Below, piece by piece: positions 3,300 through 62,790 of a DNA stretch of 64,000 nucleotides. Each line of letters starts with the position of its first letter. The stretch's first letter is position 1. The notes beneath the pieces were generated by a model. That model made no database searches, was not told where the DNA came from, and saw nothing but the letters and a program-made list of their open reading frames with translations. Made by a program: the position numbers and the translations under genes. The DNA is from Mobula hypostoma (taxonomy: Eukaryota): positions 105,340,001-105,404,000 of the forward strand of contig NC_086097.1 in assembly GCF_963921235.1 (NCBI RefSeq), given 5' to 3'.

Positions 3300-3750
3300 C
3301 ACTTAATATGCATCCTTTGAATTCCCCATTCCACTCCAACATTGACCTGAGGTGTGTGGCCTCCTGCATTGTACACCGCGGCCCAACCCAGCTTGAAGAG
3401 CACCTCATCTTATATCTACTAATACAGCCTGATAGTGAGTCATCCAGCTTAAGGTAACTGGCCATTTCTGAGCATCCCCATCCTGCGGCTTGATCTGTTG
3501 GGCGTATCCCACAGTATTACTTTCAACAACACATGAGGCAAGCAAGGAACCTCAATGTGCTTGAAACCACACTTGTTATCACAGATAATCCCCATCACTT
3601 CCCCACATTTTCAACTGAGAACTAACTTTTTTCTTTTCCCTCAGACCTGAAACATTAATTGTTCCTCTTTCCCTAGATGCTGCCTGACCTGCTGAGTGCT
3701 TTCAGCATTTTCTAGTTTTATTTCATATTTCCAGCACTGCAGTTGTTTGA
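3300..3750 (+). mobile_element. Old Penelope-like element 3' fragment
   Basis: Decayed similarity to the endonuclease end and the gatgctgcctgacctgctgag terminus of the 38608-39358 copy. Confidence 0.55.
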
Positions 3751-11710: not shown

Positions 11711-12573
11711 TGTTACGTACCCCGTAACTGGGTTGCCAAACCAGCAGAAATGGATCACTCAGTTGGAGTCTGGATTACTAGAACTAAGAAAGTTTTATTA
11801 AAGAAACAAGCAACACAGTAATCGAAAGGATAATAAATGCAACAGTTCAGCGATGATAAACACACATGTGCACAGAATTAAGATAACAGCATCAATCAAG
11901 CTCTTATCGTTGTCTAGGGATAAATGACCAATTTCAAAGTGACACAAAGTTCAGTCCAATTTAGTTCAGTTCGCAGTAATCGTTGCCATGGCGATGGACA
12001 ACGTGGTGGGAGAGAGAGAGAGAGAGAACGGGAATGACTGATCATTCAGAAACGGCTTCCACTCACAGACCGGCGATAATTGCTCACAAGCAACTTTTGG
12101 GCAGGTCCTTGGTGATGTCACCTGAGGTCACCGACTGTGACCCCTCCTCCAGATGCGGTTGATCCTCTGCAGTGAACCCGGCACCCAGGCAAGGGCGGAC
12201 ACACACCGGGTTCCCGCTGATCGTACCTTTCCACCCTGTCCGTTGTCCGGTACTTCCCACTGACTCGTGAGAGGCGCACCGCTTCCAGGGTCTCGTTACC
12301 TCGGGTGTCGTGTGTCCTGCCTTAGCGAACCTGTCCCTTTTTATCCCCCTGCTGGGGTATCGCCGGTCCATCACTTCAAACAGTTCAGGGTTCAAAGGGG
12401 GAGCCGCTCCAGACAGCTCTCTCTCCCCCGTCCCTTCATTACACATCTCCAGACGCTGCTTCATTGTTCCTTATCTCTCCTTCCCCTGAGGGCAGGTGGC
12501 AGACCACTTGCTGATGTCACTGATGCTAACCCAGGCCAGCAAATATCTTAATTTTACGTGTATTCTCGTCACA
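11711..12573 (-). repeat. 3' LTR
   Basis: Near-identical to 15720-16582; abuts the PPT. Confidence 0.95.
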
Positions 12574-12585
12574 CTTCCCCCCTTT
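12574..12585 (-). promoter_or_regulatory. Polypurine tract (aaaggggggaag)
   Basis: Purine run immediately upstream of the 3' LTR on the minus strand. Confidence 0.85.
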
Positions 12586-12745
12586 AAGGATTTTTACCGG
12601 GAGGTAAAATTACAAACATGAATACATTATTTGATACACACACAAATATACATCTTTATCAGCTATTTGGCTAACACAGCGAGTTTGAAGTTGTCAACAC
12701 CTTGCCAGACAGTCATCACATTTTCTGTTCCTTTTATATGTGTTA

Positions 12746-14161
12746 TTAATAATCCCTTCGACCAGGCTCCAACTCAGCAAACTTCATAGTGGCCAAAAAC
12801 ACTGATGAATTGCGATCAATGTAACCTCTCATTTGGCTTTGTCCCGGACCACAATAACAAGGGTCGTCCCATTCCAACTCAGTTTTCTCTCGCAAGGGCT
12901 TAGTAGGAGGGGGACGGGTATTGACCGCAGAGTTATTGCAAAACTTCCTGCAGTACCCCACCATCTCCAAGAGCCTTCTGAGGGCCCTCTTGTCTGTCGG
13001 GGTTGGGAGGTCAGCGATAGCCTGCACTGCAGCTTGCATCGCTGCCAGCTGCCCCTGTGTCACCACAATTCCCAGGTAAGTGACCCTCGTGTGGCCGAAT
13101 TCATTTTTTTCAAGGTTCACTATCAAGCTGGCTTCAGACAGCCGTATTAAATTGCCAATACACACCTCTGTGTTCATCAGCTCTTTAGTCACTGAATTAC
13201 TCATTATATATGGGTGTTGTTTACTAGGCTGACCTATTGTAACAGACATCACCCAACGTCCCAGTTCTTTGCATTGCCTCGGGACAATCAAACACACGGG
13301 TGCGAGTCGTTTAATTACTTCTTCTAAAGATTCGCTTTGTTCGGGGATTAAGGGAGAGACCTTATCAGTAGACCTGGCCAAAACAATAGCCTTCTCCCAT
13401 CTGATCGATCCCATACTAATCTTTTCAAAATGGTTTTTTCCTCTTATCAGGGGGCCCCTAGCTTCATTGATTTCCACGCTAACACCGACTAGGTTTGTTA
13501 GTATATCAAAAGCCAGTGACCGTCTCAGTTCGCGTCGGTCATGATCAATAACATTCTTCCCCCTGGGCAGCCGGTAAATCTCTTTCATGATTCCACCAAC
13601 TGTTTCCTCCAGCACCGCAAAATGTCCACCGAGGGGTACCTCGTGGGCCATGTTAAAAACCTCATCCCCATAACTCTTTTGCACCACCCCCCATTCCTCA
13701 TCTGCGGGTACTGTACTTGATTTCTCTTTTTTCCTTAGCACTTCCTCCTCCACACAATAGCCTACTTGTTCCCTTGTTAAAGCTGTGTCAGAGAGAGCTG
13801 TCTCTGCCAAAACCATCAGCCCCTCGTCTCGCTCCTGCGTCTGCACAAATTCTTTCCTGGCTACTGCTACGTCCGTCCCAGCTCCCTCACTACCTCTTGT
13901 CTCACTACACCCTGTCTCATACAAGGTTGGCAGAAACGTTTCAGCTAAATTCACTATCGCGGTCCCGTGATGAACCTGTGAGTCCATGGGCGGGGCCTCA
14001 ATGCTGGCAGGCTGACCTGTTAATCTCACGCCTGGGAACACGATTCCTCCGGCGATGTCATTACCGAGCAAGACTTCCACGTCTTTCATCGGTAATTCGG
14101 ACCTCACCCCGATCGTGACTAGTCCAGAGACCAGGTTGCTTTGTAAGTGTATCTGGTGCAA
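12746..14161 (-). pseudogene. Collapsed pol ORF: protease C-terminus, integrase Zn-binding remnant and RT thumb remnant
   Basis: VEVLLGNDIAGG (PR), AHEVPLGGHF (IN HH) and VTYLGIVV..LPTPTDKRALRRLLEMVGYCRKF (RT); no IN DDE core, YxDD or RNase H seen. Confidence 0.8.
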
Positions 14162-15621
14162 AGGGACGACTCTGTCCCTTCCCTAACACCTTTGACCTCT
14201 ACCTCCCCAGTCTGGGTCTCTGAGCTAAACTCTAATACACTCTTCAGTATTAGTGACTGACACGCTCCCGTGTCTCTCCAGATCCGCACTGGAACTGGTT
14301 TTAACCCCTCCTTCACTGACACCAATCCGGCCGAGATAAAACTCTCGCACCCTTCCTGGACTTTTTCAGACCTGTCCTTCCCTAGCGATTCGTGTACCAG
14401 CTCGATACAGCCAGTCAAAATTGCCGTTTTTCCTTTTCCCGTCTCCTCCTTTGGGGCAAAGCACCTGGACGCAAAGTGTCTGGCTTTCCCACAATTATAA
14501 CGGACGACCCCAGGAGACTTCCTACCAGACTGCTCCCGGTCTACCTTATCCTTTTCACTAGTCCCCGGCTTACTTTCTGACTTTTCTGGCAGACTCTCCC
14601 CGCCGTCCTGACTACCCTTCTGGTAGCTTTTACTCGGGGCAAACTTCATTTTATGCATCAACGCATACTTATCCGCTAACTTAGCAGTTGCGGCTAACGT
14701 GGCTGCCTCTTTCTCATTGAGGTAGGGTCTCATACCCTCAGGGACACAACCTTTAAACTGCTCAATCAGGATCAGTTGTAGCAGTCTGTCATAATCCCCC
14801 TCTACCCCCTTCGAGGCGCACCAACGCTCACAATATGTCTGCATCTCGCGGGCAAACTCCAAATACGTGCGGTCCCACTGCTTCCTCGCTTTCCGGAACC
14901 TCTGCCGGTATGCCTCCGGGACCAACTCATAAATCCTGAGGATGGCCTCTTTCACCACCTCATACCTCTGGGCATCTTCCGCGGACAAAGCGGAGTAAGC
15001 TTCTTGGGCCTTCCCTTTCAGTACACTCTGAAGTAAGACAACCCACTTATCCCTTGGCCAGTCCTGACTTATAGCCACTTTTTCGAAGTGGAGAAAGTAC
15101 CGATCCACGTCAGTATCGTCAAATGGGGGAACCAGCCTAACCTCCTGGGTCGCCCGGAACCCTCCACCTTGGTTCGGCACGAGCCCCTGCTCGGCCCTCA
15201 TCTTTAACTTCTCCAGCTCAAATTCCCTTTCCCTCTGTTTCTCCTCTCTCTCCAACTGTCTGTCCCTCTCTTTCTCTTCTCTCTCCAACTGTCTTTCTCT
15301 CTCTTGCCTTTCTAACTCTCTCTCCTTCTCTTCGTGTTCTAACTGCCGTACCTGGAACTCGTGCTCGAGTCTCAGTTTTTCAAGCTGTACCTGTACCGCG
15401 TCTCCAGCAGGTTTTTCAATAGACACCACCCCCAGCTCACCTTGGGGAAACACACCTTTAGATACATAGTGCTCTACAATAGCTCTGTGTATCTCCTCTC
15501 TCCTCATTGTCGACTTCACCTTAGCAAGATTCAACCGTTTGGCCACAGCTATCAATTCCGATTTCCTGGCATCCTCTAATGCCTCCAAGGTCGGCGCCTT
15601 TATAAATTCCTCAGCCTCCAT
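14119..15621 (-). CDS. Gag-protease ORF with SCAN-like capsid domain
   Basis: Coiled coil; PEAYRQRFR..LILIEQF SCAN-like segment; degenerate knuckle RYNCGKARHFASRC; protease motif RDTGA. Confidence 0.88.
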   Translation of the reverse strand: MEAEEFIKAPTLEALEDARKSELIAVAKRLNLAKVKSTMRREEIHRAIVEHYVSKGVFPQGELGVVSIEKPAGDAVQVQLEKLRLEHEFQVRQLEHEEKERELERQERERQLEREEKERDRQLEREEKQREREFELEKLKMRAEQGLVPNQGGGFRATQEVRLVPPFDDTDVDRYFLHFEKVAISQDWPRDKWVVLLQSVLKGKAQEAYSALSAEDAQRYEVVKEAILRIYELVPEAYRQRFRKARKQWDRTYLEFAREMQTYCERWCASKGVEGDYDRLLQLILIEQFKGCVPEGMRPYLNEKEAATLAATAKLADKYALMHKMKFAPSKSYQKGSQDGGESLPEKSESKPGTSEKDKVDREQSGRKSPGVVRYNCGKARHFASRCFAPKEETGKGKTAILTGCIELVHESLGKDRSEKVQEGCESFISAGLVSVKEGLKPVPVRIWRDTGACQSLILKSVLEFSSETQTGEVEVKGVREGTESSLCTRYTYKATWSLD

Positions 15622-15697
15622 TTCTGCTGTTTGTCTTTTCTTTCTTTCGGGAATTTTAACCCAATCAATTTACTCCGTCCCAAATTTAGCGTTCAAA

Positions 15698-15715
15698 ATC
15701 CCGGACGAGCCCCCA
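15698..15715 (-). promoter_or_regulatory. Primer binding site for tRNA-Pro (TGGGGGCTCGTCCGGGAT)
   Basis: 18-nt complement of the tRNA-Pro 3' end, 4 nt downstream of the 5' LTR. Confidence 0.93.
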
Positions 15716-15719
15716 CTTA

Positions 15720-16582
15720 TGTTACGTACCCCGTAACTGGGTTGCCAAACCAGCAGAAATGGATCACTCAGTTGGAGTCTGGATTACTAGAACTAAAAGT
15801 TTTATTAAAGAAACAAGCAACACAGTAATCGAAAGGATAATAAATGCAACAGTTCAGCAATGATAAACACACATGTGCACAGAATTAAGATAACAGCATC
15901 AATCAAGCTCTATCGTTGTCTAGGGATAAATGACCAATTTCGAAGTGACACAAAGTTCAGTCCAATTTAGTTCAGTTCGCAGTAATCGTTGCCATGGCGA
16001 TGGACAACATGGTGGGAGAGAGAGAGAGAGAGAACGGGAACGACTGATCATTCAGAAACAGCTTCCACTCACAGACCGACGATAATTGCTCACAAGCAAC
16101 TTTTGGGCAGGTCCTTGGTGATGTCAACTGAGGTCACCGACTGTGACCCCTCCTCCAGATGCAGTCGATCCTCTGCAGTGAACTCGGCACCCAGGCAAGG
16201 GCGGACACACACCGGGTTCCCGCTGATCGTACCTTTCCACCCTGTCCGTTGTCCGGTACTTCCCACTGACTCGTGAGAGGCGCACCGCTTCCAGGGTCTC
16301 GTTACCTCGGGTGTCGTGTGTCCTGCCTTAGCGAACCTGTCCCTTTTTATCCCCCTGCTGGGGTATCGCCTGTCCATCACTTCAAACAGTTCAGGGTTCA
16401 AAGGGGGGAGCCGCTCCAGACAGCTCTCTCTCCCCCCCGTCCCTTCATTACACATCTCCAGACACTGCTCCATTGTTCCTTATCTCTCCTTCCCCTGAGG
16501 GCAGGTGGCAGACCACTTGCTGATGTCACTGATGCTAACCCAGGCCAGCAAACATCTTAATTTTATGTGTATTCTCGTCACA
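15720..16582 (-). repeat. 5' LTR
   Basis: Paired with 11711-12573; followed by the PBS on the minus strand. Confidence 0.95.
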
Positions 16583-17984
16583 CGAGTAAAAGATGAACTG
16601 ATTTCCAGAAGGCATAAAGTTAAAGATGACACATTCCTTTAATATTTTAAGCAAGAAAATTTTTATTTGCATCTTTTATAATTTTAAAATAACAGAAAAG
16701 GGCCCAAAGCAAAAGTTTGGACGCCCTGCATGGCAGTACTTAATAACAACCCCCTTTGGCAAGTATCACAGCTTGTACAGGTTTCCCCCGCCATCCAAAG
16801 GTAGAGCGTTCCTATGTTTATTTTTACTAAGTTCTATTTTAACTTCATCAGTCCACAGGACTCGTTTCCAAAATGCATCAGGCTTGTTTAGATGTTCCTT
16901 TGAACTTTTTGAATAGAACTTTTTGGCCGCCATGAGCAAAGGTATGTTTGGAGAAAAAGGGTATAGGATTTCATGAAAAGAACCCCTCTCCAACTGTTAA
17001 GAATGGGAGTGGATCGATCATGCTTTTGGGCTTGTGTTGCAGCCAGTGCCATGGGGAACATTTACTGGTAGAGGGAAGAATGAAGTCAATTAAATACCAG
17101 CAAATTCTGGAAGCAAACATCACACCGTCTGTAAAAATGCCAAAGATGAAAAGAGGATGGCTTCTACAACAGGATAATGAACCTAAACACACCTCAAAAT
17201 CCACAGTGGACTACCAAGAGGCGCAAGCTAAAGTTTTGCCATGACCCTAAACATCAAGGATCTGTGGATAGACCTCAAAAGAGCAGTGCATGCAAGACGA
17301 CCCAAGAATCTCACAATACCAGAAGCCTTTTGCAAGGAAGAATGGGTGAAAATCCCCCAAACAAGAATTGAAAGACTCTTAGCTGGCTACAAAAAAACCT
17401 GTACAAGCCATGAAACTTGCCAAAGGGGATGTTACTAAGTACTGCCATGCAGGGTGCCCAAACTTTTGCTTCAGGCCCTTTTCCTTTTGTGTTATTTTGA
17501 AACTATAAAAGATGGAAATAGAAGTTTTCTTGCTTAAAATATTAAAGAAATGTGTCATCTTTAACTTTATGCCTTTTGGAAATCAGTTCATCTTTTACTT
17601 GCTTAGCTATTCACAGTAACAGAAATTTTGACGAGGAGTGCCCAAACTTTTGCATGCCACTGTATAATATGAAAAGTAGTCCTAACTCTACTAGTCACTG
17701 GCAGTCAACCAGAAAAGGCCCCCCTTTATTCCCACTCTGGGTGACTGTCGGGAGGCAATCTTCTATTCATGTTAGTATCTTTTCTGTAACACCACAACAC
17801 TTCCATAAGGTCACCTATTAGCCTCCTTCATCCCAGGGAAAACAAGCCCAACTTATCCAATCCAAGCAACATCCTGGTGAATGTTGGTTGCAAATTTCCT
17901 AAAATTCTCTGTTGAGGGAGGTCTACTAAATCAAAAATTCCTTTATTTAAAATGGAGGGACACAAAGCAGGAAACTACAGGACA

Positions 17985-18163
17985 CATGCAAACAGCTGGA
18001 GGAACTCAGCAGGCCAGGCAGCATCTATGGAAAACAGTACAGTTTGGGCTGAGACCCTTCGGCAGGACTCTTGGCCTGAAACATTGATTGTACTCTTTTC
18101 CATAGATGCTGCCTGGCCTAAGTTCCTCCAGCATCTGCAGAATTTCTCTTGCTTGTGATTGAA
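17985..18163. mobile_element. Fold-back element made of two inverted Penelope-like termini
   Basis: Inverted arms ctggaggaactcagcaggccaggcagcatctatgg / ccatagatgctgcctggcc; 13-bp TSD aaactacaggaca (17972-17984, 18164-18176). Confidence 0.8.
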
Positions 18164-19372: not shown

Positions 19373-19629
19373 GTAGGTTGATCAGTCCACTAGTGTGGCA
19401 ATGCATCAGTCCTGCCCCAGCAGGAGCAGCACACATTCTCAACTCCCAGTGTATGCAACATTCAAATCAAATGGGCGAAGGAAACAAGCTCCCTTCACCA
19501 CTCGCTGTGGCAGAATACTCAGGATTATGTCCTTTCACCTGAACTCTCCATTGGTAAATATAGGAATTGGCATTCACTTCTGAGTCTCCTGTGCCAAGTG
19601 AAATAATGAGAGAACTCTGCTTTCCTCAG

Positions 19630-19774
19630 GATAACAAATGATGCACGAGAAGACGAGATGGAAGACAACCTGCAACAAGTGGGCAGTATCATTGGAAACC
19701 TGAAAAATATGGCGATTGACATGGGCAACAACATAGAGTCTCACAACAAGAAAATTGAAGACATCGCTGAGAAG
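19630..19774 (+). CDS. SNAP23: SNAP23 Qc exon (145 bp; [48 protein letters not shown])
   Basis: tttcctcag/gtattt splice sites; strong SNAP23/25 similarity. Confidence 0.96.
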
Positions 19775-24226: not shown

Positions 24227-24396
24227 TAGTGTAGAGAAGAGTCTGGTCATATACTATGGTAAAAGGAATAAAAGCAGACTTTTTTTAAACTGGAGAAAAT
24301 TCAAATCTCAGCAGTGGGTAGGGACTTGGAATCTTCTGCAGAATTCCCTGGAGGTTAATGTTCAGGTTGAGTTGGTAGCAAGGAAGGCAAATACAT

Positions 24397-24493
24397 CCTG
24401 ACGAAGGGTCTCGGCCTGAAACGTCGACTGCGCCTCTTCCTATAGATGCTGCCTGGCCTGCTGCGTTCACCAGCAACTTTTATGTGTGTTGCT
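24397..24493 (+). mobile_element. Short Penelope-terminus insertion starting at a hammerhead core
   Basis: CTGACGA at 24398-24404 and GAAACGTC at 24418-24425; 9-bp TSD caaatacat; helix I 5' strand mostly missing. Confidence 0.8.
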
Positions 24494-25371
24494 CAAATAC
24501 ATGACTGATCATTTCCACGGATGCTGCCCGACCTGCTGAGTTCCTCCAGCATGTTGTGAAGGTAAATACAATGTTAGCATTAATTTCAAGAGGCCCACAA
24601 TACAAGAGCAAGGATGTAATGCTGAAGCTTTATAAGGCCATGGTCAGTGTGCATTTGAAGGACTGTCGGCAGTTTTGGGCCCATAAGATGCACTGGCATT
24701 GAAGATGGCCCAGAGGTGGTGCATGAGAATGATTCAGGGAATGAAAGAGCTGGTATTTGAGGCTCTGGACCTGTACCCACTGGTGGTTAGAATGGAGGTT
24801 GGGGGGGGGGGCGCGGAGAGGAGAAAGAGGGAGAAATCTCATTGAAACCTATTGAAAGGCCTGTATTGAGAGGATGTTTCCTGCAGTAGGTGAGTCCAAG
24901 TTCAGAGGCACAGCCTCAGACTAGAAAAGACAAGGAGAAAATTCTTTAGCTAGTGGATAGTGAATCTGGATTTCATTGCCCCGGATGGCTGTCGAGACCA
25001 AGGCATTGAGTACATTTAAAGCAGAGCCTTAGGTTCTTGCTTAGCCAGGGTGTCAAAGGTTACAGGAAGGAGGAGGAGAATGTGGTCCTAAATCAGCCAT
25101 GATGGAATGGTGGAACAGACTCAATGGACCAAATGGCCTAATTCTGTTCCTGTGTCTTATGGAATGGCCTCTTCGGCTGTAACCATTTTATCATTCTCTG
25201 CACTATCAAATTAGATGGTAGAGCAGTGTTAACTTCAACTACTTTAAACTTGAAGGCCAAGTTTAAAGATGATACTATTCTCATCAAATTTTCCCAGTTG
25301 TCAAACTGTATTTCTGTCTGTGAGTATCTCAATATGTAAAGTAAGCAAACACTAATTCTTGTTTTAAACAG

Positions 25372-27168: not shown

Positions 27169-27210
27169 TTAAGCAAATTTCTTCTTTGTTGCTGTAAAGC
27201 GCTCCATGTA
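27169..27210 (-). CDS. LRRC57: LRRC57 last coding exon (YMERFTATKKKFA*)
   Basis: cctttcag acceptor; matches the LRRC57 C-terminus as I recall it. Confidence 0.94.
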   Translation of the reverse strand, partial: YMERFTATKKKFA

Positions 27211-27371
27211 CTGAAAGGAGAAAGAATAAATCGCAAGTCAGACAGCAGCAGCACCACAATCATCCAGTAAGGACAGGCCAGCACCCTGAGCTCCAAACCC
27301 ATACAGATGCAACAGCTGAGAATTCCTGGTCTTATTGCTGCTAAGCAAGCCACCACACAGCAACCTTCCTA

Positions 27372-27611
<240 letters not shown>

Positions 27612-27999
27612 CTAGCAGACACACAGCTGCTATTGCTGGAAATCTATAGCATCACAAAGGAACTGGAGAAATTCAGGTGGTCAGGCAGCATCAAACTGCT
27701 AGTTTGTCTTTCAGAACTTAAAGAATCATTGACCTGACATATTGTCTCCACATTTGCTGCCTGATCAACTGTTTCCAGCATTCTCTGCTTCTGTTACAGC
27801 TTTTCAGCGTCTGTTGTTTTGCTTTCAATAACTGATGCAGCTATAAGTTTGTTTAGGATTATATGTTCCTATCCAAGTACCTCAACTGGATTACTCAAGT
27901 TTCCCAACTTCAAGATAATATATATGCAGTACATGCAGTCTTACTTCATAATATAACTGTGCCAAACTATACTAGAACTTTTCAGATATAGTAACCGAC

Positions 28000-28268
28000 C
28001 TGGTTCTGGTTGACATTAAGTTCAATAGCCTGCAGCTGCTCCAGGTCATCCGGAAGACGCTGGATCTGATTCTTGGACAGGTCCACCACATCCAGGTGTC
28101 GTAGTTGACATAGTTGGAGGGGAAACTCCCGCAGCCGGTTCCCAGAGAGACTCAGGGTCTTCAAGGCTGCCAGCTGCCCAAAACTGGAAGGGAGATGCTT
28201 CAATGAGTTAGCACAGAGGTGAAGACTCTCCAGTTTCCTCAGCTTGCCCAAATCCTCAGGAAGAACAG
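28000..28268 (-). CDS. LRRC57: LRRC57 coding exon 3 (269 bp; LRRs)
   Basis: cag/gtcggt splice sites; LxxLxLxxN repeats; phase consistent with neighbours. Confidence 0.95.
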
Positions 28269-28590
28269 CTGACAGGAAGGGAAAGACAAACTTGTTCAAT
28301 GGGTGGGATTGATAACAAGTGAAGGTACTGAGCAATAGTACGATTGTGGGTCACTGCAAGGCTTTAAACCTTAGGACAGAAAGGTTCATGTTTCTGGAAC
28401 ACTGACCACCAGAGGCAGGCAGCGACTCGGATTGGTTGCACAAGGGTTGTATGATGCAGTAAGAGAAAAGGGTATAGCCGCCTGGGATTAGGATCAGTCA
28501 ATAACGGCCCGAACAGAATGTATGGGCTATACCTACCCAAAACCTGGAACCAGAAATAATTGAGTGTAAACAATGCTGTTGAGGTGTTCA

Positions 28591-28989
<399 letters not shown>

Positions 28990-30540
28990 TCATCTGTAAG
29001 GATTGCTAAAGGATTAAAAACGCCATCGTATATCTCCCGCCCCTCTCCCCCCCCCCACCAATTACCATCCAGAGTCTTCCACGCCAAATCCCAACTTGCA
29101 CCCAGATGGTGGATGCACAATAGAGTATCCGCATCTGGGTTCAGTGGAGTGTTAGCCAAGGACTGAAGCAAACTCGTTAATCTCACTAGAACCAATACTG
29201 TCAGTGGATATGGGAATACTATCATGGGACATTAATTTGCATACAGGTTGACCATACAGTCACAGAATAACAGACTGGGTACAGGTTGGGAGTATAGTCA
29301 AGTTGGGTACGGGTTAGGAGTATGATCAATGGAACAAAATATCAGGTAGGATGCAGGGGAGGAATTTTTAATCACCTACATTCACAAACTGAGTGAAAAC
29401 TGAATGTAGGAAATGATTGCTCTCATATCTACTTCCTTAGGACTGGTGACAACAACCAGCCTTGTATTTCCTTTAACCTCTTTGGCCCTACAGCAGAACT
29501 GAGAGTGCTTACTGAATGCACACTGAGTGAGTGACAACCTGCGTGCAGCTTTCTTACACAAACCCCCCCTCCTGATAGTCGCTACAGAGCCTGTATGCTG
29601 CAATTCTCTATGTATTCCCATTTTGATGTCTCATCTATTGTCCCAACAGGCACCCCAGTTTTTCTTGTCCTTCAATTATTAGCAGCAATACTCCTGTTCC
29701 AATGTGCTTCAGTTTCCCTCCTAGGGAACTTCGCGTCCCCTCGTATATTTTAGCCATCAGTTGACATGTCATTTATTTCACATCTACCATGGCAATGTCC
29801 ATTTCTATCTAGGAATACAGGTTCTTAATTCGCTGAAAGTGGCGTCACAGGTTGTAAAGAAAGCTTTTGGCACATTGGTCTTCATACATCAATGTATTGA
29901 GTATAGAAGATGGGATGGGATGTTATGTTGGAAGTTGTAGAAGGCATTGGTGAGGTCTCATTTGGAGTACTGTGCATGCTTTTCTGGTCAGCTAACTACA
30001 ACAAAAATATCAATATGATTGAAGAGTGTAAAGAGTCTGTACAAGGATGTTGCTGGGTCTGGAGAAGCAGAGATTTGACAGGTTAGAATGTAAGATTATG
30101 AGGAGATTTGATAGAGATAGACAAAATTACGAGGGTATAGATAGGGTAAATGCAAGGAAGCTTTTTCCACTGAGGTTGGATGGGACTACAACCAGAGGTC
30201 ATGGGTCAAGGGTGAAAGGTGAGAAGTTTTAGGGGAACATGAGGGGAAAGTTCTTCACTCAGAAGGTTGAGAGTGTGGAATGAGCTGACAGAAGATGCCT
30301 GCAGCAGTCAGCAAATCCATCTCACCAATGTCCCAAACATCTAGAACATAAGCCTGCACCTCAATATTGTCTGACACCAAAGAAAACTGTTGCAATTAAA
30401 TACTGAGCTGGCTTTGTTCTTTCACACCCCCATCTTTAACAACTGCCAACAACTCTCCCAGATATGAAGATGAAAATATTCACAAATGAATCTAAGAAAG
30501 CCACACCATCACAACATCCATTTATTCCTTAACAGTATCA

Positions 30541-30804
<264 letters not shown>

Positions 30805-32872: not shown

Positions 32873-33080
32873 AAACACAAAATACTCTGCAGATGCTGGG
32901 GTCAAAGCAACACTCACAACACGCTGGAGGAACTCAGCAGGTCGGCCAGCATCCGTGGAAACGATCAGTCAACGTTTTGGGCCAGACATTGTTCACATTG
33001 TTCCGGCCCAAAACGTTGACTGATCGTTTCCACAGATGCTGCCCAACCTGCTGAGTTCCTCCAGCGTGTTCTGAGTGTTG
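32873..33080. mobile_element. Fold-back Penelope-terminus element
   Basis: ~77-bp near-perfect inverted arms 32907-32983 / 33005-33081; imperfect TSD ccaagca(cc/gt)ttctc. Confidence 0.85.
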
Positions 33081-36800: not shown

Positions 36801-36805
36801 TTCCT

Positions 36806-38580
36806 CAAAGTTGCTGGTGAACGCAGCAGGCCAGGCAGCATCTCTAGGAAGAGGTACAGTGGACGTTTCAGACCGAGACCCTTCGTCAGGTCTAACTGAA
36901 AGAAGAACTAGTAAGAGATTTGAAAATGGGAGGGGGAGACCCGAAATGATAGGAGAAGACAGGAGGGGGAGGGATGGAGCCAAGAGCTGGACAGGTGATT
37001 GGCAAAAGGGATACGAGAGGATCATGGGACAGGAGGCCCAGGGAGAAGGAAAAGGGGGAGGGGGAAAACCCAGAGGATGGGCAAGGGGTTTAGTCAGAGG
37101 GACAGAGGGAGAAAAAGGAGAGAGAGAGAGAGAGAAAAAGAATGTGTGTATATAAATAAATAACGGATGGGGTACGAGGGGGAGGTGGGGCATTAGCGGA
37201 AGTTAGAGAAGTCAATGTTCATGCCATCAGGTTGGAGGCTACCCAGACGGAATATAAGGTGTTGTTCCTCCAACCTGAGTGTGGCTTCACCTTAACAGTA
37301 GAGGAGGCCGTGGATAGACATATCAGAATGGGAATTCAAAGATTCAAAAAACTTTATTGTCATTCTAACCGTACATCAGCTCTGTAGGGCAGAATGAGAC
37401 AGCGTTTCCCAGGAGCAGTGCAATCATAACATAACAAACGCAACACTAAATAATAAATATAACAATAAATAGTAAAACACAACAGCCACATGTCGGTTAA
37501 AATCAGTTATAAGTGTCCAGTGCAAGTTAAAAATGTCTAAAGCAGAGTCAGGTGGAGCAGCTATTTAGCAGTCTGACTGCCTGTGGGAGGAAGCTGTTTA
37601 GTAGCCTTGTAGTTTTAGTTTTGATGCTCCTGTAACGTTTGCCTGATGGCAGAAGAACAACCAGTTCATGGAGAGGGTGTGAGGAGTCTTTAATGATGTA
37701 CTGTGTCTTCTGGAGGCATCGACTCTGAAAGAGGTCTTGGACAGAAGGTAGGGAGACCCCAATAACCTTCTCTGCTTCCCTAACCACCCTCTGCAAGGCT
37801 TTATTGTGGACAGCACTGCAGCTGGAGTACCAGGTTGTGATGCAAAAGGTCAGCACACTCTCAACCACGCTTCTGTAGAAAGTAGTTAAGATGTTAGTGG
37901 GGAGTGACGCTTGTTTAAGCTCTCTCAGAAAGTGCAATCTCTGCTGGGCCCGTTTCACAATCCCAGTGGTGTTCCTGCACCAGGTGAGATTGTCTGAGAT
38001 CTGCACCCATGGGATGAATGGGTTGTTGAATTAAAATGTGTGACCACTGGGAGATCCTGCTTTCTCTGGCAGACAGAGCATAGGTGTTCAGCAAAACGAT
38101 CTCCCAGTCTGCGTCGAGTCTCGCCAATATATAGAAGGTCGCATCGGGAACACTGGACGCAGTATATCACCCCAGTCGACTCACAGGTGAAGTGTTGCCT
38201 CACCTGGAAGGACTGTTTGGGGCCCTGAATGATGGTAAGGGAGGAAGTGTAAGGGCATGTGTAGCACTTGTTCTGCTTACATGGGTAAGTGCCAGGAGGG
38301 AGATCAGTGGGGAGGGATGGGGGGAGAACGAATGGACAAGGGAGTCGTGTAGGGAGCGATCCCTGTGGAAAGCGGGGGGGGGGGAAGATGTGCTTAGTGG
38401 TGGGATCCCGTTGGAGGTGGCAGAAGAATAATATTGGAGAATAATATGTTGGACCCGGAGGCTGGTGGGGTGGTAGGTGAGGACCAGGAGAACCCTATTC
38501 CTAGTGGGGTGGCAGGAGGATGGAGTGAGAGCAGATGTACGTGAAATCGGGGAGATGCGTTTCAGAGCAGAGTTGATGGT
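36806..38580 (-). mobile_element. Penelope-like element fragment (GIY-YIG end plus terminus), split by a Rex1 insertion
   Basis: VIYCVQCSRCDLLYIGET (37955-38203); terminus mirrors 38950-39358; mutated hammerhead at 36857-36894. Confidence 0.88.
37335..38008 (-). mobile_element. Rex1/Babar-like LINE 3' fragment
   Basis: IVKRAQQRLHFLR..FYRSVVESVLT..LPSGKRYRSI..NSFLPQAVRLLN; tail tttgaatctttgaa. Confidence 0.85.
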
Positions 38581-38607
38581 GGAGGTCTTAGTGGTGGGAT
38601 CCCGTTG

Positions 38608-39358
38608 GCAGTCCCCGGACAGTCCTTCCAGGTGAGGCGACACTTCACCTGTGAGTCGGCTGGGGTGATATACTGTGTCCGGTGCTCCCGATGTGGCCTT
38701 CTATATATTGGAGAGTCCCGACGCAGACTGGGAGATCGCTTTGCTGAACACCTACGCTCTGTCCGCCAGAGAAAACAGGATCTCCCAGTGGCCACACATT
38801 TTAATTTCACATCCCATTTCCATTCTGATATGTCTATCCACGGCCTCCTCTACTGTCAAGATGAAGCCACACTCAAGTTGGAGGAACAACACCTTAAATT
38901 CTGTCTGGGTAGCCTCCAACCTGATGGCATGAACATTGACTTCTCTAACTTCCGCTAATGCCCCACCTCCCCCTCTTACCCCATCCATTATTTATTTATA
39001 TACATACATTCTTTCTCTCTCTCTCTCCCTTTTCTCCCTCTGTCCCTCTGACTATACCCCTTGCCTATCCTCTGGGTTCCCCCCACCCCCCTTTTCGTTC
39101 TCCCTGGGCCTCCTGTCCCATGATCTTCTCATATCCCTTTTGCCAATCAACTGTCCAGCTCTTGGCTCCATCCCTCCCCCTCCTGTCTTCTCCCGTCATT
39201 TTGGATCTCCCCCTCCCCCTCCCCCTCCCCCTCCCACTTTCAAATCTCTTACTAGCTCTTCCTTCAGTTAGTCCTGACGAAGGGTCTCGGCCCGAAACGT
39301 CGACTGTACCTCTTCCTATAGGTGCTGCCTGGCCTGCTGCGTTCACCAGCAACCTTGA
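38608..39358 (+). mobile_element. Penelope-like element 3' part: GIY-YIG endonuclease plus hammerhead-bearing terminus
   Basis: ORF 38605-38958: FTCES.GVIYCVRCSRCGLLYIGES..RFAEH..VATHFN..E..QPDGMN. Confidence 0.9.
39269..39306 (+). ncRNA. Minimal type I hammerhead ribozyme (predicted cleavage after C39301)
   Basis: UAGUC-CUGACGA-A-GGGU(CUCG)GCCC-GAAAC-GUC^GACUG; helices I and II intact; loopless palindromic helix III ACGU. Confidence 0.8.
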
Positions 39359-39360
39359 TG

Positions 39361-42300
39361 AACATCATTGTAAATCTCCTCTGCACCCTCTCTATAGTTT
39401 CCACACCCTTCCTGTAGCGAGGTGATCAGAACTGAGCACAGTTCTCCAAGTGGGGTCTGACCAGGGTCCTATATACCTGCAACATTACCTTTCAGCTCTT
39501 AAATTCAATTCCACGATTGATAAAGGCCAATGCACCGTATGCCTTCCTAACCACAGAGTCAACCTGCGCAGCTGCTTTGAGCGTCCTATGGACTCGGACC
39601 CCAAGATCCCTCTGATATTCCACACTGCCAATAGCCTTACCATTAATACTATATTCTGCCATCATATTTGACTTAGCAAAATGAACAACTTCACACTTAT
39701 CTGGGTTGAACTCCATCTGCCACTTCTCAGCCCAGTTTTGCATCCTATCAGTGTCCCACTATAACCTCTGACAGCCCTCCACACTATCCACAACACCTCC
39801 ATCCTTTGTGTCATCAGCAAACTTACTAGCCCATCCCTCCACTTCCTCATCCAGGTCATTTATAAACATCACGAAGAGTAAGGGTCCCAGAACAGATCCC
39901 TGAGGCACACCACTGGTCACTGACTTCCATGCAGAAAATGACCCGTCTAAAACCACTCTTTGCCTTTTTTGGCAAGCCAGGTCTGGATCCACAAAGCAAT
40001 GTCCCCTTGGATCCCATGCCTCCTTACTTTCTCAATAAGCCTTGCGTGGGGTACCTTCTACTGCTCTTCCTTCATCAGTGTGTTTAGTCACATCCTCAAA
40101 AAATTCAATCAGGCTTGTAAGGCACGACCTGCCCTTGACAAAGCCATGCTGACTATTCCTAATATTATACCTCTCCAAATGTTCATAAATCCTCCCTCTC
40201 AGGATCTTCTCCATCAACTGACCAACCACTGAAGTAAGACTCACTGACCTATAATTTCCTGGGCTATCTCTACTCCCTTTCTTGAATAAGGGAACAATAT
40301 CCGCAACCCTCCAATCCTCCGGAATCTCTCCCGTCCCCATTAATCACCGCCAGAGATCAGCAATCTCCTCCCTCGCCTCCCACAGTACCCTCAGGTACAT
40401 CTCATCCGGTCCAGGTGACTTATCCAACTTGATGCTTTCCAAAAGCTCCAGCACATCCTCTTTCTTAATATCTACATGCTCAAGCTTTTTAGTCAGCTCT
40501 ACAATCTCCAAGATCCTTTTCCATAGTGAATACTGGAGTATTCATTAAGTACCTTCGCTATTTCATCCAGTTCCATACACACTTTCCCACTATCACACTT
40601 GATAGGTCCTATTCCTTCACGTCTTATCCTTTTGCTCTTCACATACTTGTAGAATGCCTTGGGGTTTTCCTTAATCCTGCCCGCCAAGGCCTTCTCATGG
40701 CCCCTTCTGGCTCTCCTAATTTCCTTTTTAAGCTCCTTCCTATTAGCCTTATGATGTTCAAGCTCTCTGAACCTTTTGTAAGATTTTCTTTTCTTCTTGA
40801 CTAGATTTATTACAGCCTTTGTACACCACAGTTCCTGTACCCTACCATAACTTCCCTGTCTCATTCGAACGTACCTATGCAGAACTCCACACAAATATCC
40901 CCTGAACATTTGCCACATTTCTTCCGTACTTTTCCCTGAGAACATCTGTTCCCAATTTATATAACCATATAACAATTACAGCACGGAAACAAGCCATCTT
41001 GGCCCTTCTAGTCCATGCCGAACTCTTACTCTCACCTAGTCCCACCGACCTGCACTCAGCCCATAACCCTCCATTCCTTTCCTGTCCATATATCTATCCA
41101 TTTTTACTTTAAATGACAACATCGAACCTGCCTCAACCACTTCTGTTGGAAGTTCATTCCACACAGCTACCACTCTCTGAGTAAAGAGGTTCCCCCTCAT
41201 GTTACCCCTAAACTTTTGTCCTCTAACTCTCAAGCCATGTCCTCTTGTTTGAATCTTCCCCACTCTCAATGGAAAAAGTCTAACCATGTTAACCATGTTA
41301 TCAATCCCCCCATAATTTTAAATACCTCTATCAAGTCCCCCCTCAACCTTCTACGCTCCAAAGAATAAAGACCCAACTTGTTCAACCTTTCTCTGTAACT
41401 TAGGAGATGAAACTCAGGCAACATTTTAGTAAACCTCCTCTGTACTCTCTCAATTTTATTGACATCTTTCCTATAATTCGGTGACCAGAACTGTACACAA
41501 TATTCCAGATTTGGCCTTACCAATGCCTTCTACAAATTCAACATTACATCCCAACTCCTATACTCAATGCTCTGATTAATAAAGGCCAGCAAACCAAAAG
41601 CTTTCTTCACCACCCTATCCACATGAGATTCCATCTTCAGGGAACTATGCACCATTATTCCTAGATCCCTCTGTTCTAAAGCATTCTTTAATGCCCTACC
41701 ATTTACCATGTATGTCCTATTTTGATTAGTTCTACCAAAATGTAGCACCTCACATTTTTCAGCATTAAATTCCGTCTGCCATCTTTCAGCCCACTCTTCT
41801 AACTGTCCTAAATCTCTGCAAGTTTTGAAAACCTACCTCATCATCCACAACACCACCTATCTTAGTATCATCTGCATACTTACTAATCCAATTTACCACC
41901 CCATCATCCAGATCATTAATATATATTACAAACAACATTGGACCCAGTACAGATCCCTGAGGCACACCGACACACCGTCCTCCAATCTGACACACAGTTA
42001 TCCACCACTACTCTCTGTCGTCTCCCATGCTGAATCCATATTACTACTTCCATATTAATGCTTAATGATTGAACCTTCCTAACTAACCTTCCGTGTGGAA
42101 CCTTGTCAAAGGCTTTACTGAAGTCCATATAGACAACATCCACCGTTTTACCCTCGTCAACTTTCTTAGTAACCTCATCAAAAAATTCAATAAGATTTGT
42201 CAAACATGACCTTCCACGTACAAATCCATGTTGACTGTTCCTAATCAGACCCTGTCTATCCAGAAAATTATATATACCATCTCTAAGAATACTCTCCATC

Positions 42301-46902: not shown

Positions 46903-47034
46903 ACAACACACACAAAATGCTGGAGGAACTCAGCAGGCCAGGCAGGTCTATAGATGCTGTATGACTTGCTGAGTTCCTCCAGCATTTTGTGTGTATTGCT
47001 TGGACTTCCAGCATCTGCAGATTTTCTCTAGTTT
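46903..47034. mobile_element. Small fold-back Penelope-terminus element
   Basis: 28-bp perfect inverted arms 46908-46935 / 46967-46994. Confidence 0.75.
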
Positions 47035-47126: not shown

Positions 47127-49637
47127 GTACGTGGTGGTAGGAGGACGTGGCTGAGTACGTGGTGGTAGGAGGACGTGGCTGAGCGCGTGGTGGTAGGAGG
47201 ACGTGGCTGAGTACGTGGTGGTAGGAGGACGTGCCTGAGGACATGGTGGTAGGAGGACGTGGCTGAGCGCGTGGTGGTAGGAGGACGTGGCTGAGCGCGT
47301 GGTGGTAGGAGGACGTGGCTGAGTACGTGGTGGTAGGAGGACATGCCTGAGCGCGTGGTGGTAGGAGGACGTGGCTGAGCGCGTGGTGGTAGGAGGACAT
47401 GCCTGAGCGCGTGGTGGTAGGAGGACGTGGCTGAGCGCGTGGTGGTAGGAGGACGTGGCTGAGTGCGTGGTGGTAGGAGGACGTGGCTGAGCGCGTGGTG
47501 GTAGGAGGACGTGGCTGAGCGCGTGGTGGTAGGAGGACATGCCTGAGCGCGTGGTGGTAGGAGGACGTGGCTGAGCGCGTGGTGGTAGGAGGACGTGGCT
47601 GAGGACGTGGTGGTAGGAGGACGTGGCTGAGCGCGTGGTGGTAGGAGGACGTGGCTGAGTACGTGGTGGTAGGAGGACGTGCCTGAGCGCGTGGTGGTAG
47701 GAGGACGTGCCTGAGGACATGGTGGTAGGAGGACGTGGCTGAGCGCGTGGTGGTAGGAGGACATGCCTGAGCGCGTGGTGGTAGGAGGACGTGGCTGAGC
47801 GTGTGGTGGTAGGAGGACGTGGCTGAGTACGTGGTGGTAGGAGGACGTGCCTGAGCGCGTGGTGGTAGGAGGACGTGGCTGAGCGCGTGGTGGTAGGAGG
47901 ACGTGGCTGAGTACGTGGTGGTAGGAGGACGTGGCTGAGGACATGGTGGTAGGAGGACGTGCCTGAGCGCGTGGTGGTAGGAGGACGTGCCTGAGCGCGT
48001 GGTGGTAGGAGGACGTGGCTGAGTACGTGGTGGTAGGAGGACGTGGCTGAGTACGTGGTGGTAGGAGGACGTGCCTGAGCGCGTGGTGGTAGGAGGACGT
48101 GGCTGAGCGCGTGGTGGTAGGAGGACGTGGCTGAGTACGTGGTGGTAGGAGGACGTGCCTGAGCGCGTGGTGGTAGGAGGACGTGCCTGAGGACATGGTG
48201 GTAGGAGGACGTGGCTGAGCGCGTGGTGGTAGGAGGACATGCCTGAGCGCGTGGTGGTAGGAGGACGTGGCTGAGCGCGTGGTGGTAGGAGGACGTGGCT
48301 GAGTACGTGGTGGTAGGAGGACGTGCCTGAGCGCGTGGTGGTAGGAGGACGTGCCTGAGGACATGGTGGTAGGAGGACGTGGCTGAGTACGTGGTGGTAG
48401 GAGGACGTGGCTGAGCGCGTGGTGGTAGGAGGACGTGGCTGAGCGCGTGGTGGTAGGAGGACATGCCTGAGCGCGTGGTGGTAGGAGGACGTGGCTGAGC
48501 GCGTGGTGGTAGGAGGACGTGGCTGAGTGCGTGGTGGTAGGAGGACGTGGCTGAGCGCGTGGTGGTAGGAGGACATGCCTGAGTGCGTGGTGGTAGGAGG
48601 ACGTGGCTGAGCGCGTGGTGGTAGGAGGACATGCCTGAGCGCGTGGTGGTAGGAGGACGTGGCTGAGCGCGTGGTGGTAGGAGGACGTGGCTGAGGACGT
48701 GGTGGTAGGAGGACGTGGCTGAGCGCGTGGTGGTAGGAGGACGTGGCTGAGTACGTGGTGGTAGGAGGACGTGCCTGAGGACATGGTGGTAGGAGGACGT
48801 GGCTGAGCGCGTGGTGGTAGGAGGACGTGGCTGAGGACATGGTGGTAGGAGGACGTGGCTGAGTACGTGGTGGTAGGAGGACGTGGCTGAGGACATGGTG
48901 GTAGGAGGACGTGGCTGAGGACATGGTGGTAGGAGGACGTGGCTGAGCGTGTGGTGGTAGGAGGACGTGCCTGAGGACATGGTGGTAGGAGGACGTGGCT
49001 GAGTACGTGGTGGTAGGAGGACGTGGCTGAGTACGTGGTGGTAGGAGGACGTGCCTGAGGACGTGGTGGTAGGAGGACGTGGCTGAGCGCGTGGTGGTAG
49101 GAGGACGTGCCTGAGCGCGTGGTGGTAGGAGGACGTGCCTGAGGACATGGTGGTAGGAGGACGTGCCTGAGGACATGGTGGTAGGAGGACGTGCCTGAGC
49201 ACGTGGTGGTAGGAGGACGTGGCTGAGCACGTGGTGGTAGGAGGACGTGCCTGAGCGCGTGGTGGTAGGAGGACGTGCCTGAGGACATGGTGGTAGGAGG
49301 ACGTGGCTGAGCGCGTGGTGGTAGGAGGACGTGGCTGAGCGCGTGGTGGTAGGAGGACGTGGCTGAGCACGTGGTGGTAGGAGGACGTGGCTGAGCGCGT
49401 GGTGGTAGGAGGACGTGGCTGAGCACGTGGTGGTAGGAGGACGTGGCTGAGCGCGTGGTGGTAGGAGGACGTGGCTGAGCGCGTGGTGGTAGGAGGACGT
49501 GCCTGAGGACATGGTGGTAGGAGGACGTGGCTGAGCGCGTGGTGGTAGGAGGACGTGGCTGAGCGCGTGGTGGTAGGAGGACGTGGCTGAGCGCGTGGTG
49601 GTAGGAGGGCGTGCCTGAGTACGTGGTGGTAGGAGGA
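47127..49637. repeat. 28-bp minisatellite (gtggtggtaggaggacgtggctgagcgc), ~90 copies
   Basis: Directly visible tandem array with variants at two positions. Confidence 0.97.
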
Positions 49638-58436: not shown

Positions 58437-59885
58437 GTGAAAGAAAAGCACGGCAACAGTGTAAAGAGCGGCAGCGGTGTGCAGAGAGCACGGCAGCAGT
58501 GTGTGAAGAGAGCACGGCAGCGGTGTGTGAAGAGAGCACGGCAGCGGTGTGTGAAGAGAGCACGGCAGCAGTGTGAAGAGCGGCAGCGGTGTGAAGAGAG
58601 CACGGCAGCGGTGTGTGAAGAGAGCACGGCAGCGGTGTGTGAAGAGAGCACGGCAGCGGTGTGTGAAGCGAGCACGGCAGCGGTGTGTGAAGCGAGCACG
58701 GCAGCAGTGTGAAGAGAGCACGGCAGCGGTGTGTGAAGAGAGCACGGCAGCGGTGTGTGAAGAGAGCACGGCAGCGGTGTGAAGAGAGCACGGCAGCGGT
58801 GTGAAGAGAGCACGGCAGCGGTGTGTGAAGAGAGCACGGCAGCGGTGTGAAGAGAGCACGGCAGCGGTGTGAAGAGAGCACGGCAGCGGTGTGTGAAGAG
58901 AGCACGGCAGCGGTGTGTGAAGAGAGCACGGCAGCGGTGTGTGAAGCGAGCACGGCAGCGGTGTGTGAAGCGAGCACGGCAGCGGTGTGTGAAGCGAGCA
59001 CGGCAGCAGTGTGAAGAGAGCACGGCAGCGGTGTGTGAAGAGAGCACGGCAGCGGTGTGAAGAGAGCACGGCAGCGGTGTGAAGAGAGCACGGCAGCGGT
59101 GTGTGAAGAGAGCACGGCAGCGGTGTGAAGAGAGCACGGCAGCGGTGTGAAGAGAGCACGGCAGCGGTGTGTGAAGAGAGCACGGCAGCGGTGTGAAGAG
59201 AGCACGGCAGCGGTGTGAAGAGAGCACGGCAGCGGTGTGTGAAGAGAGCACGGCAGCAGTGTGAAGAGAGCACGGCAGCGGTGTGTGAAGAGAGCACGGC
59301 AGCGGTGTGAAGAGAGCACGGCAGCGGTGTGTGAAGAGAGCACGGCAGCGGTGTGTGAAGAGAGCACGGCAGCGGTGTGTGAAGAGAGCACGGCAGCGGT
59401 GTGTGAAGCGAGCACGGCAGCGGTGTGTGAAGAGAGCACGGCAGCGGTGTGTGAAGCGAGCACGGCAGCGGTGTGTGAAGCGAGCACGGCAGCGGTGTGT
59501 GAAGAGAGCACGGCAGCGGTGTGTGAAGAGAGCACGGCAGCGGTGTGTGAAGAGAGCACGGCAGCGGTGTGTGAAGAGAGCACGGCAGCGGTGTGTGAAG
59601 AGAGCACGGCAGCGGTGTGTGAAGCGAGCACGGCAGCGGTGTGTGAAGAGAGCACGGCAGCGGTGTGTGAAGAGAGCACGGCAGCGGTGTGTGAAGCGAG
59701 CACGGCAGCGGTGTGTGAAGAGAGCACGGCAGCGGTGTGTGAAGAGAGCACGGCAGCGGTGTGTGAAGAGAGCACGGCAGCGGTGTGTGAAGCGAGCACG
59801 GCAGCGGTGTGTGAAGAGAGCACGGCAGCGGTGTGTGAAGAGAGCACGGCAGCGGTGTGTGAAGCGAGCACGGCAGCAGTGTGTG
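58437..59885. repeat. 24/22-bp minisatellite (gaagagagcacggcagcggtgt[gt]), ~60 copies
   Basis: Directly visible tandem array. Confidence 0.97.
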
Positions 59886-62627: not shown

Positions 62628-62665
62628 CAGTCCTGACGAAGGGTCTCGGCCTGAAACGTCGACTG
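62628..62665 (+). ncRNA. Minimal type I hammerhead ribozyme (predicted cleavage after C62660)
   Basis: CAGUC-CUGACGA-A-GGGU(CUCG)GCCU-GAAAC-GUC^GACUG; perfect 5-bp helix I. Confidence 0.75.
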
Positions 62666-62764
62666 CGCCTCTTCCTATAGATGCTGCTTGGCCTGCTGCG
62701 TTCACCAGCAACTTTGATGTATGTTGCTTGAATTTCCAGCATCTGCAGAATTCCTGTTGTTTGC
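62629..62764 (+). mobile_element. 136-bp ribozyme-led Penelope-terminus insertion
   Basis: Perfect 12-bp TSD gtgaacaaattc (62617-62628, 62765-62776). Confidence 0.88.
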
Positions 62765-62790
62765 GTGAACAAATTCTGTTGCTTTTGCTG

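Follow-up and report, generated by a model that had tools for sequence, protein, structure and literature searches.

A Minimal Type I Hammerhead Motif in the Terminus of a 5'-Truncated Penelope-Like Element of the Ray Mobula hypostoma

Results

A Head-to-Head Insertion in LINE-Rich Ray DNA

The window, by which we mean the whole 64,000-nt stretch analyzed (Mobula hypostoma, assembly GCF_963921235.1, contig NC_086097.1, positions 105,340,001 to 105,404,000 of the forward strand), is vertebrate DNA rich in LINE fragments, and LRR domains were detected in it. It contains segments that we take to be exons like those of SNAP23 (plus strand, 2721–2870 and 19610–19735) and LRRC57 (minus strand, 27180–30711), and the two SNAP23-like exons flank the short element copies at 3640 and 17985 described below. 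Its other repeats include a Gypsy-like LTR remnant on the minus strand (12084–16479), whose two ends resemble each other and which includes, besides a degenerate pol-like frame, a gag-like frame of 516 aa that carries a SCAN domain (E = 2e-13); a minus-strand frame that by eye resembles a Tc1/mariner transposase fragment (16936–17244); and two tandem arrays, at 47130–49637 (28-bp unit, about 90 copies) and 58469–59885 (24-bp unit, about 61 copies), which hold the longest open frames of the window.

The hammerhead motif under study belongs to an insertion spanning 36801–39360, with the following features:

36801–37335, minus strand: outer part of the inverted arm, with the endonuclease end, the pLTR and a second hammerhead (36857–36894); 93.5% identical to the plus arm
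37336–38016, minus strand: unrelated LINE-like fragment of 681 bp that interrupts the inverted arm and is bounded by a 7-nt duplication (ALKBH8_N match)
38017–38608, minus strand: inner part of the inverted arm, with the RT C-terminal region, a CX4CxxC linker zinc finger and the endonuclease start; frameshifts and a rearrangement (tblastn; Pfam, E = 0.0022; alignment)
38613–38958, plus strand: GIY-YIG endonuclease end of the ORF, 5'-truncated, with CCHH and the catalytic R, H, E and N; stop at 38956–38958 (Pfam PF01541, alignment)
38959–39268, plus strand: pyrimidine-rich pLTR segment with a 3'-splice-site-like end (branch-point-like word, polypyrimidine tract, AGs at 39266–39267 and 39270–39271); splice function putative, by analogy to the D. 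virilis pLTR intron
39269–39306, plus strand: minimal type I hammerhead (the focal motif), with the predicted scissile bond at 39301/39302
39307–39360, plus strand: conserved sequence 3' of the ribozyme to the 3' end of the arm, next to a CR1-like LINE fragment

The minus arm (36801–38608) and the plus arm (38613–39360) are joined head to head and are 90–94% identical. The hammerhead at 36857–36894, in which two helix I pairs next to the core are broken, had been listed in the initial annotation as a separate copy and is instead the other outer end of this one inverted insertion. In the plus arm, 316 nt separate the ribozyme from the GIY-YIG stop on its 5' side; in the minus arm the distance is 304 nt. 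This agrees with the earlier view that the motif belongs to the end (pLTR) of a Penelope-like element (PLE) of the GIY-YIG type. The endonuclease frame ending at 38958 matched PF01541 with an E value of 3.1e-4, just short of the curated Pfam cut-off, and its nearest proteins come from rays (a Mobula PLE-type protein, 90% identity, and Hypanus, 87%), a sign of a myliobatiform host. Relatives carry RVT_1 and GIY-YIG domains, the full-length ones with DKG and YIDD; this DKG/YIDD RT is partial in the ray proteins of 78–90% identity and complete in distant relatives.

Both arms are 5'-truncated and only the RT C-terminal region is left, the RT core being missing from the window; the focal copy thus cannot move by itself. 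A search for a target-site duplication around the insertion found none, and the window holds no partial tandem copy, that is, two direct pLTRs around a full ORF. We read the insertion as a dead-on-arrival copy of an EN+ Penelope-like element with the motif in its pLTR. The element appears to be of the Neptune type, a label that rests on the linker motif, which Nematis shares, and on the host group. At the center of the inverted insertion, a 22-bp duplication (38393–38414 and 38587–38608) accompanies a jump in the order of the ORF, which suggests a template switch during integration.

Anatomy and Detection of the Motif

In the focal motif, helix I (39269–39273 with 39302–39306) is 5 bp long, a terminal U.G pair plus four Watson–Crick pairs, and leads into the core positions C3–A9 (39274–39280), with one extra A (39281) directly after A9. 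Helix II (39282–39285 with 39290–39293) consists of 4 bp, three G–C pairs and one U.G, and is closed by a loop of 4 nt; G12–A14 follow at 39294–39296, then the palindromic, loopless helix III (39297–39300; positions 15.2–16.2) and C17 (39301), 3' of which the cut is predicted. The catalytic core CUGANGA ... GAAA ... UH is complete, and the core, helix I, helix II, loopless helix III and extra A claimed in the initial annotation were all found in place. At the level of sequence, the identity of 39269–39306 as a minimal type I hammerhead motif is confirmed.

All nine pairs of helices I and II form in the focal copy and in the copy at 62628, giving the type I topology, and the palindrome at 15.2–16.2 without a loop III is present in each of the four window copies that keep the core. 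The pair at 10.1–11.1 (G39282–C39293) is G–C in the focal copy and G.U in the other three. Across the window copies, 86% of the cells are paired, compared with 12–44% for slid controls. Two-sided changes were absent from the nine pairs of the four copies, whose sequences, at 95% identity, are too similar for this absence to be informative.

We searched for hammerheads with a descriptor of our own and with Rfam, and the two disagreed. The minimal-hammerhead descriptor found two matches in the 64-kb window (39274 and 62633), above the level of 300 dinucleotide shuffles, which averaged 0.037 matches and never exceeded 1 (0/300 reached 2). Rfam gave no match at the gathering threshold and no hammerhead family among its four matches at E ≤ 10; such a miss is expected, as helix III and the loop–loop contacts are absent from the motif. 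The description of the ribozyme as probably unannotated thus holds for Rfam only and not as a claim of novelty, the motif class having been published (PMC4209133).

The Rfam result could also be taken to mean that the letters match the hammerhead consensus by chance, as could the folding of the 38-mer, which is no better than that of its shuffles (z = −1.27), and the hits of a loose core-plus-flank pattern at 28 loci in microbial and viral collections (1 viral, 27 metagenomic). None of these loci resembled the element by blastn and they were discarded as chance matches. In the window, the bare core pattern was weakly enriched (15 matches where 7.3 were expected; 1 of 100 shuffles was as high). 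Given that no shuffle reached the count of the full descriptor, and that the motif occupies the very position known for hammerheads of PLEs, we find a chance match hardly credible.

Related Copies in the Window

Outside the focal insertion, we identified the following related copies:

3640–3750, plus strand: decayed short copy with tail; the duplication search gave none that was clear
17985–18163, both strands: two decayed copies forming a fold-back pair, the minus arm of which begins at helix I; duplication of 13 nt
24396–24493, plus strand: short copy with intact core, helix I cut to 2 bp, no tail and a 9-nt duplication
24503–24558, plus strand: older fragment of a sister subfamily, starting at most about 1 nt from the predicted cut; duplication of 13 nt, one position mismatched
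32873–33080, both strands: fold-back pair that has lost the ribozyme core; only one arm is tailed
46904–47033, both strands: fold-back pair from the part 3' of the ribozyme; only one arm is tailed
62628–62765, plus strand: short copy starting at helix I, with an intact hammerhead (G.U at 10.1–11.1), a 3' tail and a 12-nt target-site duplication

In total, the family accounts for 12 segments in 8 insertions (2,795 bp, about 4.4% of the window), where the initial annotation had counted about five copies. Of the relatives named there, the descriptions of the intact copy at 62628, the shortened helix I at 24398, the mutated helix I at 36857 and the decayed copy near 18045 (a decayed core at 18033–18070 on the minus strand) stand, and only the separateness of 36857 does not. 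The core is kept in 4 of the 12 segments, and both helices in two of them (the focal one and 62628). Target-site duplications of 9–14 nt were found at six of the eight insertions in a post hoc search, two of them with 2 mismatches. In the three fold-back pairs a tail of 30–40 nt occurs on one arm, as established by alignment for two pairs and by eye for the third. At 24383–24570, a LINE remnant holds two nested PLE fragments, each from a different subfamily, at a single AT-rich target.

Such short units recall non-LTR retrozymes, which are tandem, circRNA-forming and non-autonomous. According to a preprint, retrozymes derive from PLE pLTRs and occur in one chondrichthyan genome (bioRxiv 10.64898/2026.07.22.740005), and there are a few short tandem joints in the sequencing runs described below. 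However, none of the nine rows of the tandem-repeat listing of the window covers the ribozyme; the copies are solo or inverted, the focal one being continuous with the endonuclease ORF, and the chondrichthyan units average 363 bp in the same preprint. With no head-to-tail hammerhead units in that listing, we rejected the retrozyme as a description of the window copies and give it almost no weight.

Sequence Variation across the Family

We compared positions 39236–39380 with contigs from four runs of four organisms, the "RNA" type of two of these being a guess. Thousands of contigs matched in each of the four runs (26,145, 19,957, 4,358 and 4,424, which are contig counts and not copy numbers), in line with the earlier claim of an abundant family. 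All five CpGs decay, including those at G8 (G>A in 1–8%) and at G12, which enjoys no protection (G>A in 5–18%), so many genomic copies must be dead. Non-CpG changes reaching at least 2% in all four runs affect none of the 10 core sites and 2 of the 16 helix sites, as against both loop sites and 9 of the 22 downstream sites. The difference between core and helix sites on one side and loop and downstream sites on the other is significant (Fisher P = 0.003, and P = 0.039 on the span with listed changes) within a tally that was post hoc, used depth-weighted unitigs and nonindependent sites, and omitted a change private to the focal copy.

Both of the changed helix sites keep their pairing (U.G to U–A and G–C to G.U), and the helix changes in the four runs are all one-sided and pairing-neutral, none of them being part of a two-sided compensatory change. 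At the variable core position N7, C>T reaches 8–18% and is higher than G>A at the essential G8 (1–8%) in every run. Together, these patterns suggest that the source elements are under constraint at the ribozyme. The frequency of 39293 C>T, which turns 11.1 into the U of a G.U pair, is 51–60% in the two RNA-like runs and 10–17% in the two large ones; as the organisms differ, this may reflect only a lineage-specific subfamily.

5' Ends at the Edge of Helix I

The 5' ends of short copies cluster at the outer edge of helix I. Three of the ten short segments in the window start at 39270–39272, and 11 of the 14 distinct joints in the runs have an end at 39265–39273, whereas 39303 is an end of one joint. 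In all four runs, the leading 5' loose ends fall at 39270 (637, 623, 94 and 95 records), 39271 and 39272, and agreement at the 5' loose ends is low (0.33–0.46) in comparison with the 3' loose ends (0.55–0.75). No loose ends at 39302 appear among the 24 of 526 rows listed. A start of the genomic copies at the cut site was considered and gained no support: by eye, 1 of the 10 short segments, that at 24503, begins at most about 1 nt from it, and local alignment placed the start of this fragment at 39323.

Position 39270 fits what we take to be an initiator-like word (consensus YYANWYY), and it also lies at an intron-type acceptor with a polypyrimidine tract and an AG just upstream. The stretch 39248–39271 contains a branch-point-like word, the polypyrimidine tract and two AGs, upstream of and within helix I, and most copies have a second acceptor-like AG followed by an ATG near 39321. 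In the Penelope element of D. virilis, the pLTR intron is described as ending at the 5' side of helix I. In one Mobula gene model, the predicted protein joins the motif at a place that would suit use of the AG at 39266–39267.

The endonuclease stop overlaps an ATG, and in both arms (38956–39360 on the plus strand and 36801–37195 on the minus strand) no stop interrupts the frame of this ATG across the pyrimidine-rich segment and the ribozyme; in the copy at 62628 the same frame is open through the tail. The other two frames of the focal arm contain four and three stops over this stretch, and the indels between the arms measure 6 and 18 nt. With only seven stop triplets in a pyrimidine-rich stretch, the open frame through the ribozyme may be due to chance. 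Searching for the motif-plus-tail peptide, we found two chimeric Mobula gene models (P0165 and P0166) and no start of a full-length ORF. Both models leave the motif peptide at the "short" 3' end class, and they are possible cases of exonization of PLE copies.

One reading of these ends, which we find conceivable but doubtful, is that the edge of helix I marks an RNA start or splice boundary and that the 100–140-bp ribozyme-plus-tail repeats are complete cDNAs made from an internal RT start. The choice between start and splice site would then decide on the presence of helix I and so switch the ribozyme, and one frame would run from the stop of the previous unit through the ribozyme. The pattern is confounded by the sister subfamily, which diverges just upstream of 39270 and would pile up loose ends there. 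If the reading were true, ray genomes would be a huge natural record of how PLEs use their hammerheads.

Predicted Folding and the Prospects for Cleavage

With no loop on helix III, a single RNA copy cannot complete the predicted active site. Cleavage would need a dimer, in line with the initial annotation, or a helper. The nearest-neighbor energies computed for the RNA leave out the tertiary energy: pairing of the core bases with the helix III/C17 stretch reaches −12.9 kcal/mol versus −8.9 for the hammerhead and, for two copies, the best dimer reaches −34.1 versus −16.7 for a double hammerhead, again ignoring the tertiary energy of the core. The helix III duplex between copies contributes −1.7 kcal/mol. 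No copy on the same strand that keeps both helices lies within 23 kb of the focal motif. Pairing of the two arms as a cis dimer was considered and rejected, the arms lying on opposite strands. Having an intact motif but neither a partner nor an RT, the focal copy is probably inert and most likely silent in vivo. Cleavage, if any, would be expected in tandem transcripts of the element and with help.

It could be argued instead that solo copies are active in vivo, finding partners in cis or in trans in host transcripts through the palindrome and cutting host RNAs. The focal motif is intact, the two RNA-like runs contain thousands of matching contigs (4,358 and 4,424), and the peptide derived from the motif is part of two ray gene models. 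We nevertheless consider this highly improbable: the helix III duplex is worth just −1.7 kcal/mol, the closest copy on the same strand to keep both helices lies 23 kb off, the published activity of such motifs is low (PMC4209133), and eight of nine Xenopus retrozyme dimers stayed uncleaved in a preprint (bioRxiv 10.64898/2026.07.22.740005). Nor did we find a host exon around the focal copy in 93 plus-strand frames (91 of them from a list of 174), a weak search, as two known exon-like controls also scored nothing in it.

Discussion

We consider it likely that the motif is the pLTR hammerhead of an EN+ Neptune-type ray PLE, preserved in a dead-on-arrival copy, and that in the source element it would work as its counterparts in other PLEs do. 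In PAc of Anolis, reverse transcription begins at either of two internal sites, which set the tail; it uses an uncleaved template, cleavage by the hammerhead depends on the protein of the element, and ribozyme mutants still insert, with no reads ending at the cut site (PMC11167929). PAc is a Poseidon element, and the mechanism proposed here is thus transferred across clades. For a minimal hammerhead of schistosomes, an inactive monomer and a weakly active multimer have been described (PMC4209133).

Under the favored interpretation, the source element would be transcribed as a partial tandem, yielding an RNA that carries two ribozymes and runs past the second one. The RT-endonuclease protein would nick AT-rich DNA, and reverse transcription would start internally, about 60–105 nt 3' of the cut site; the two 3' end classes of the ray family lie about 60–105 nt behind this site, and two alternative RT start sites would produce the 3' ends with and without tail. 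RT would then copy through the uncleaved ribozyme and usually stop early, leaving the short ribozyme-plus-tail copies and the fold-backs. That the template is uncleaved at the ribozyme is suggested by the intact ribozymes that have been copied into DNA. The monomer would be unable to form the active site, and cutting after C17 would require two copies joined through the 4-nt palindrome or the protein of the element. Cleavage would then be confined to tandem element transcripts, serving their processing to unit length, and solo copies in host transcripts would be harmless.

The behavior of PAc can also be turned against a catalytic role. Given that mutating its ribozyme leaves insertion unaffected and that the cut site yields no read ends (PMC11167929), the hammerhead letters may serve mainly as a noncatalytic signal, be it for protein binding, as a marker of the 5' end or of splicing, or as coding sequence, with cleavage vestigial. 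In the ray family, the 5' ends cluster at the edge of helix I instead of the cut site, the core is buried in the predicted fold, and a stop-free frame extends from the endonuclease stop through the motif in both long arms. Yet the family keeps all core positions and tolerates changes at N7, in loop II and at wobble-compatible sites, the same core occurs in 40 metazoan species of a published alignment (PMC4209133), and PAc does cleave with its protein (PMC11167929). On balance, we judge a mainly noncatalytic signal to be unlikely.

In kind, the motif is not new, contrary to the initial annotation: the extra base and the loopless palindromic helix III had already been described. The published class has an extra base after position 9, a conserved G10.1–C11.1 and palindromic 15.2–16.2 positions, and minimal hammerheads were described in Xena, Poseidon and Neptune elements of fishes, with thousands per genome in coelacanth and Xenopus (PMC4209133). 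The ray motif resembles the min-HHRs of Cervera and De la Pena (2014) in its type I topology, U-rich 5' flank, CUGANGA plus one base, G-initiated helix II, GAAA and short helix I, and also in its place in a pLTR behind the endonuclease and its occurrence mostly as solo truncated copies, some on opposite strands (PMC4209133). The same core letters appear there in rows for Acropora Neptune, Ixodes and sea urchin. The ray motif differs from that set in its short helix II (4 bp with a U.G) and in the common G.U variant at 10.1–11.1, where the published pair is G–C (PMC4209133). None of the 56 rows of Fig. S3 of that study comes from a cartilaginous fish.

With the Neptune clade as described (PMC8557442), the ray element shares the C-terminal GIY-YIG domain, the CX2-5CxxC linker and CCHH, as well as 5' truncation, an inverted copy at the 5' end and an optional tail of 30–40 bp. 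It is like PAc in having a hammerhead at the pLTR/ORF junction, two tail-defining 3' end classes and AT-rich targets; in contrast, PAc/Poseidon has no linker zinc finger, and the PAc ORF starts at helix II (PMC11167929), whereas the ray family has no ATG in the open frame there. The small PLE variants of Lunse, Weinberg and Breaker, in a paraphrase of their account (PMC6765202), likewise combine a very short palindromic stem III with dimer cleavage. Non-LTR retrozymes are alike in being short, noncoding, PLE-derived units with a type I hammerhead (PMC7229834; bioRxiv 10.64898/2026.07.22.740005), but form tandem arrays with mostly canonical hammerheads and circRNA, whereas the ray copies are solo or inverted and their motif is minimal.

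Our literature search found no paper on PLE hammerheads of elasmobranchs, and a preprint on shark and ray genome size contains no mention of Penelope or ribozyme; the set of the 2026 preprint, which covers one chondrichthyan, may include this family (bioRxiv 10.64898/2026.07.22.740005). The general picture of hammerheads and PLEs is unchanged by the finding, and published accounts leave the function of hammerheads in PLEs undecided (PMC8557442, PMC11167929). The ray family, with its many copies, clear duplications and two end classes, would allow 5' ends to be counted across a whole genome relative to the cut site, the splice acceptor and the start site. The motif extends a published class to the cartilaginous fishes and explains a very common repeat of rays that Rfam does not flag.
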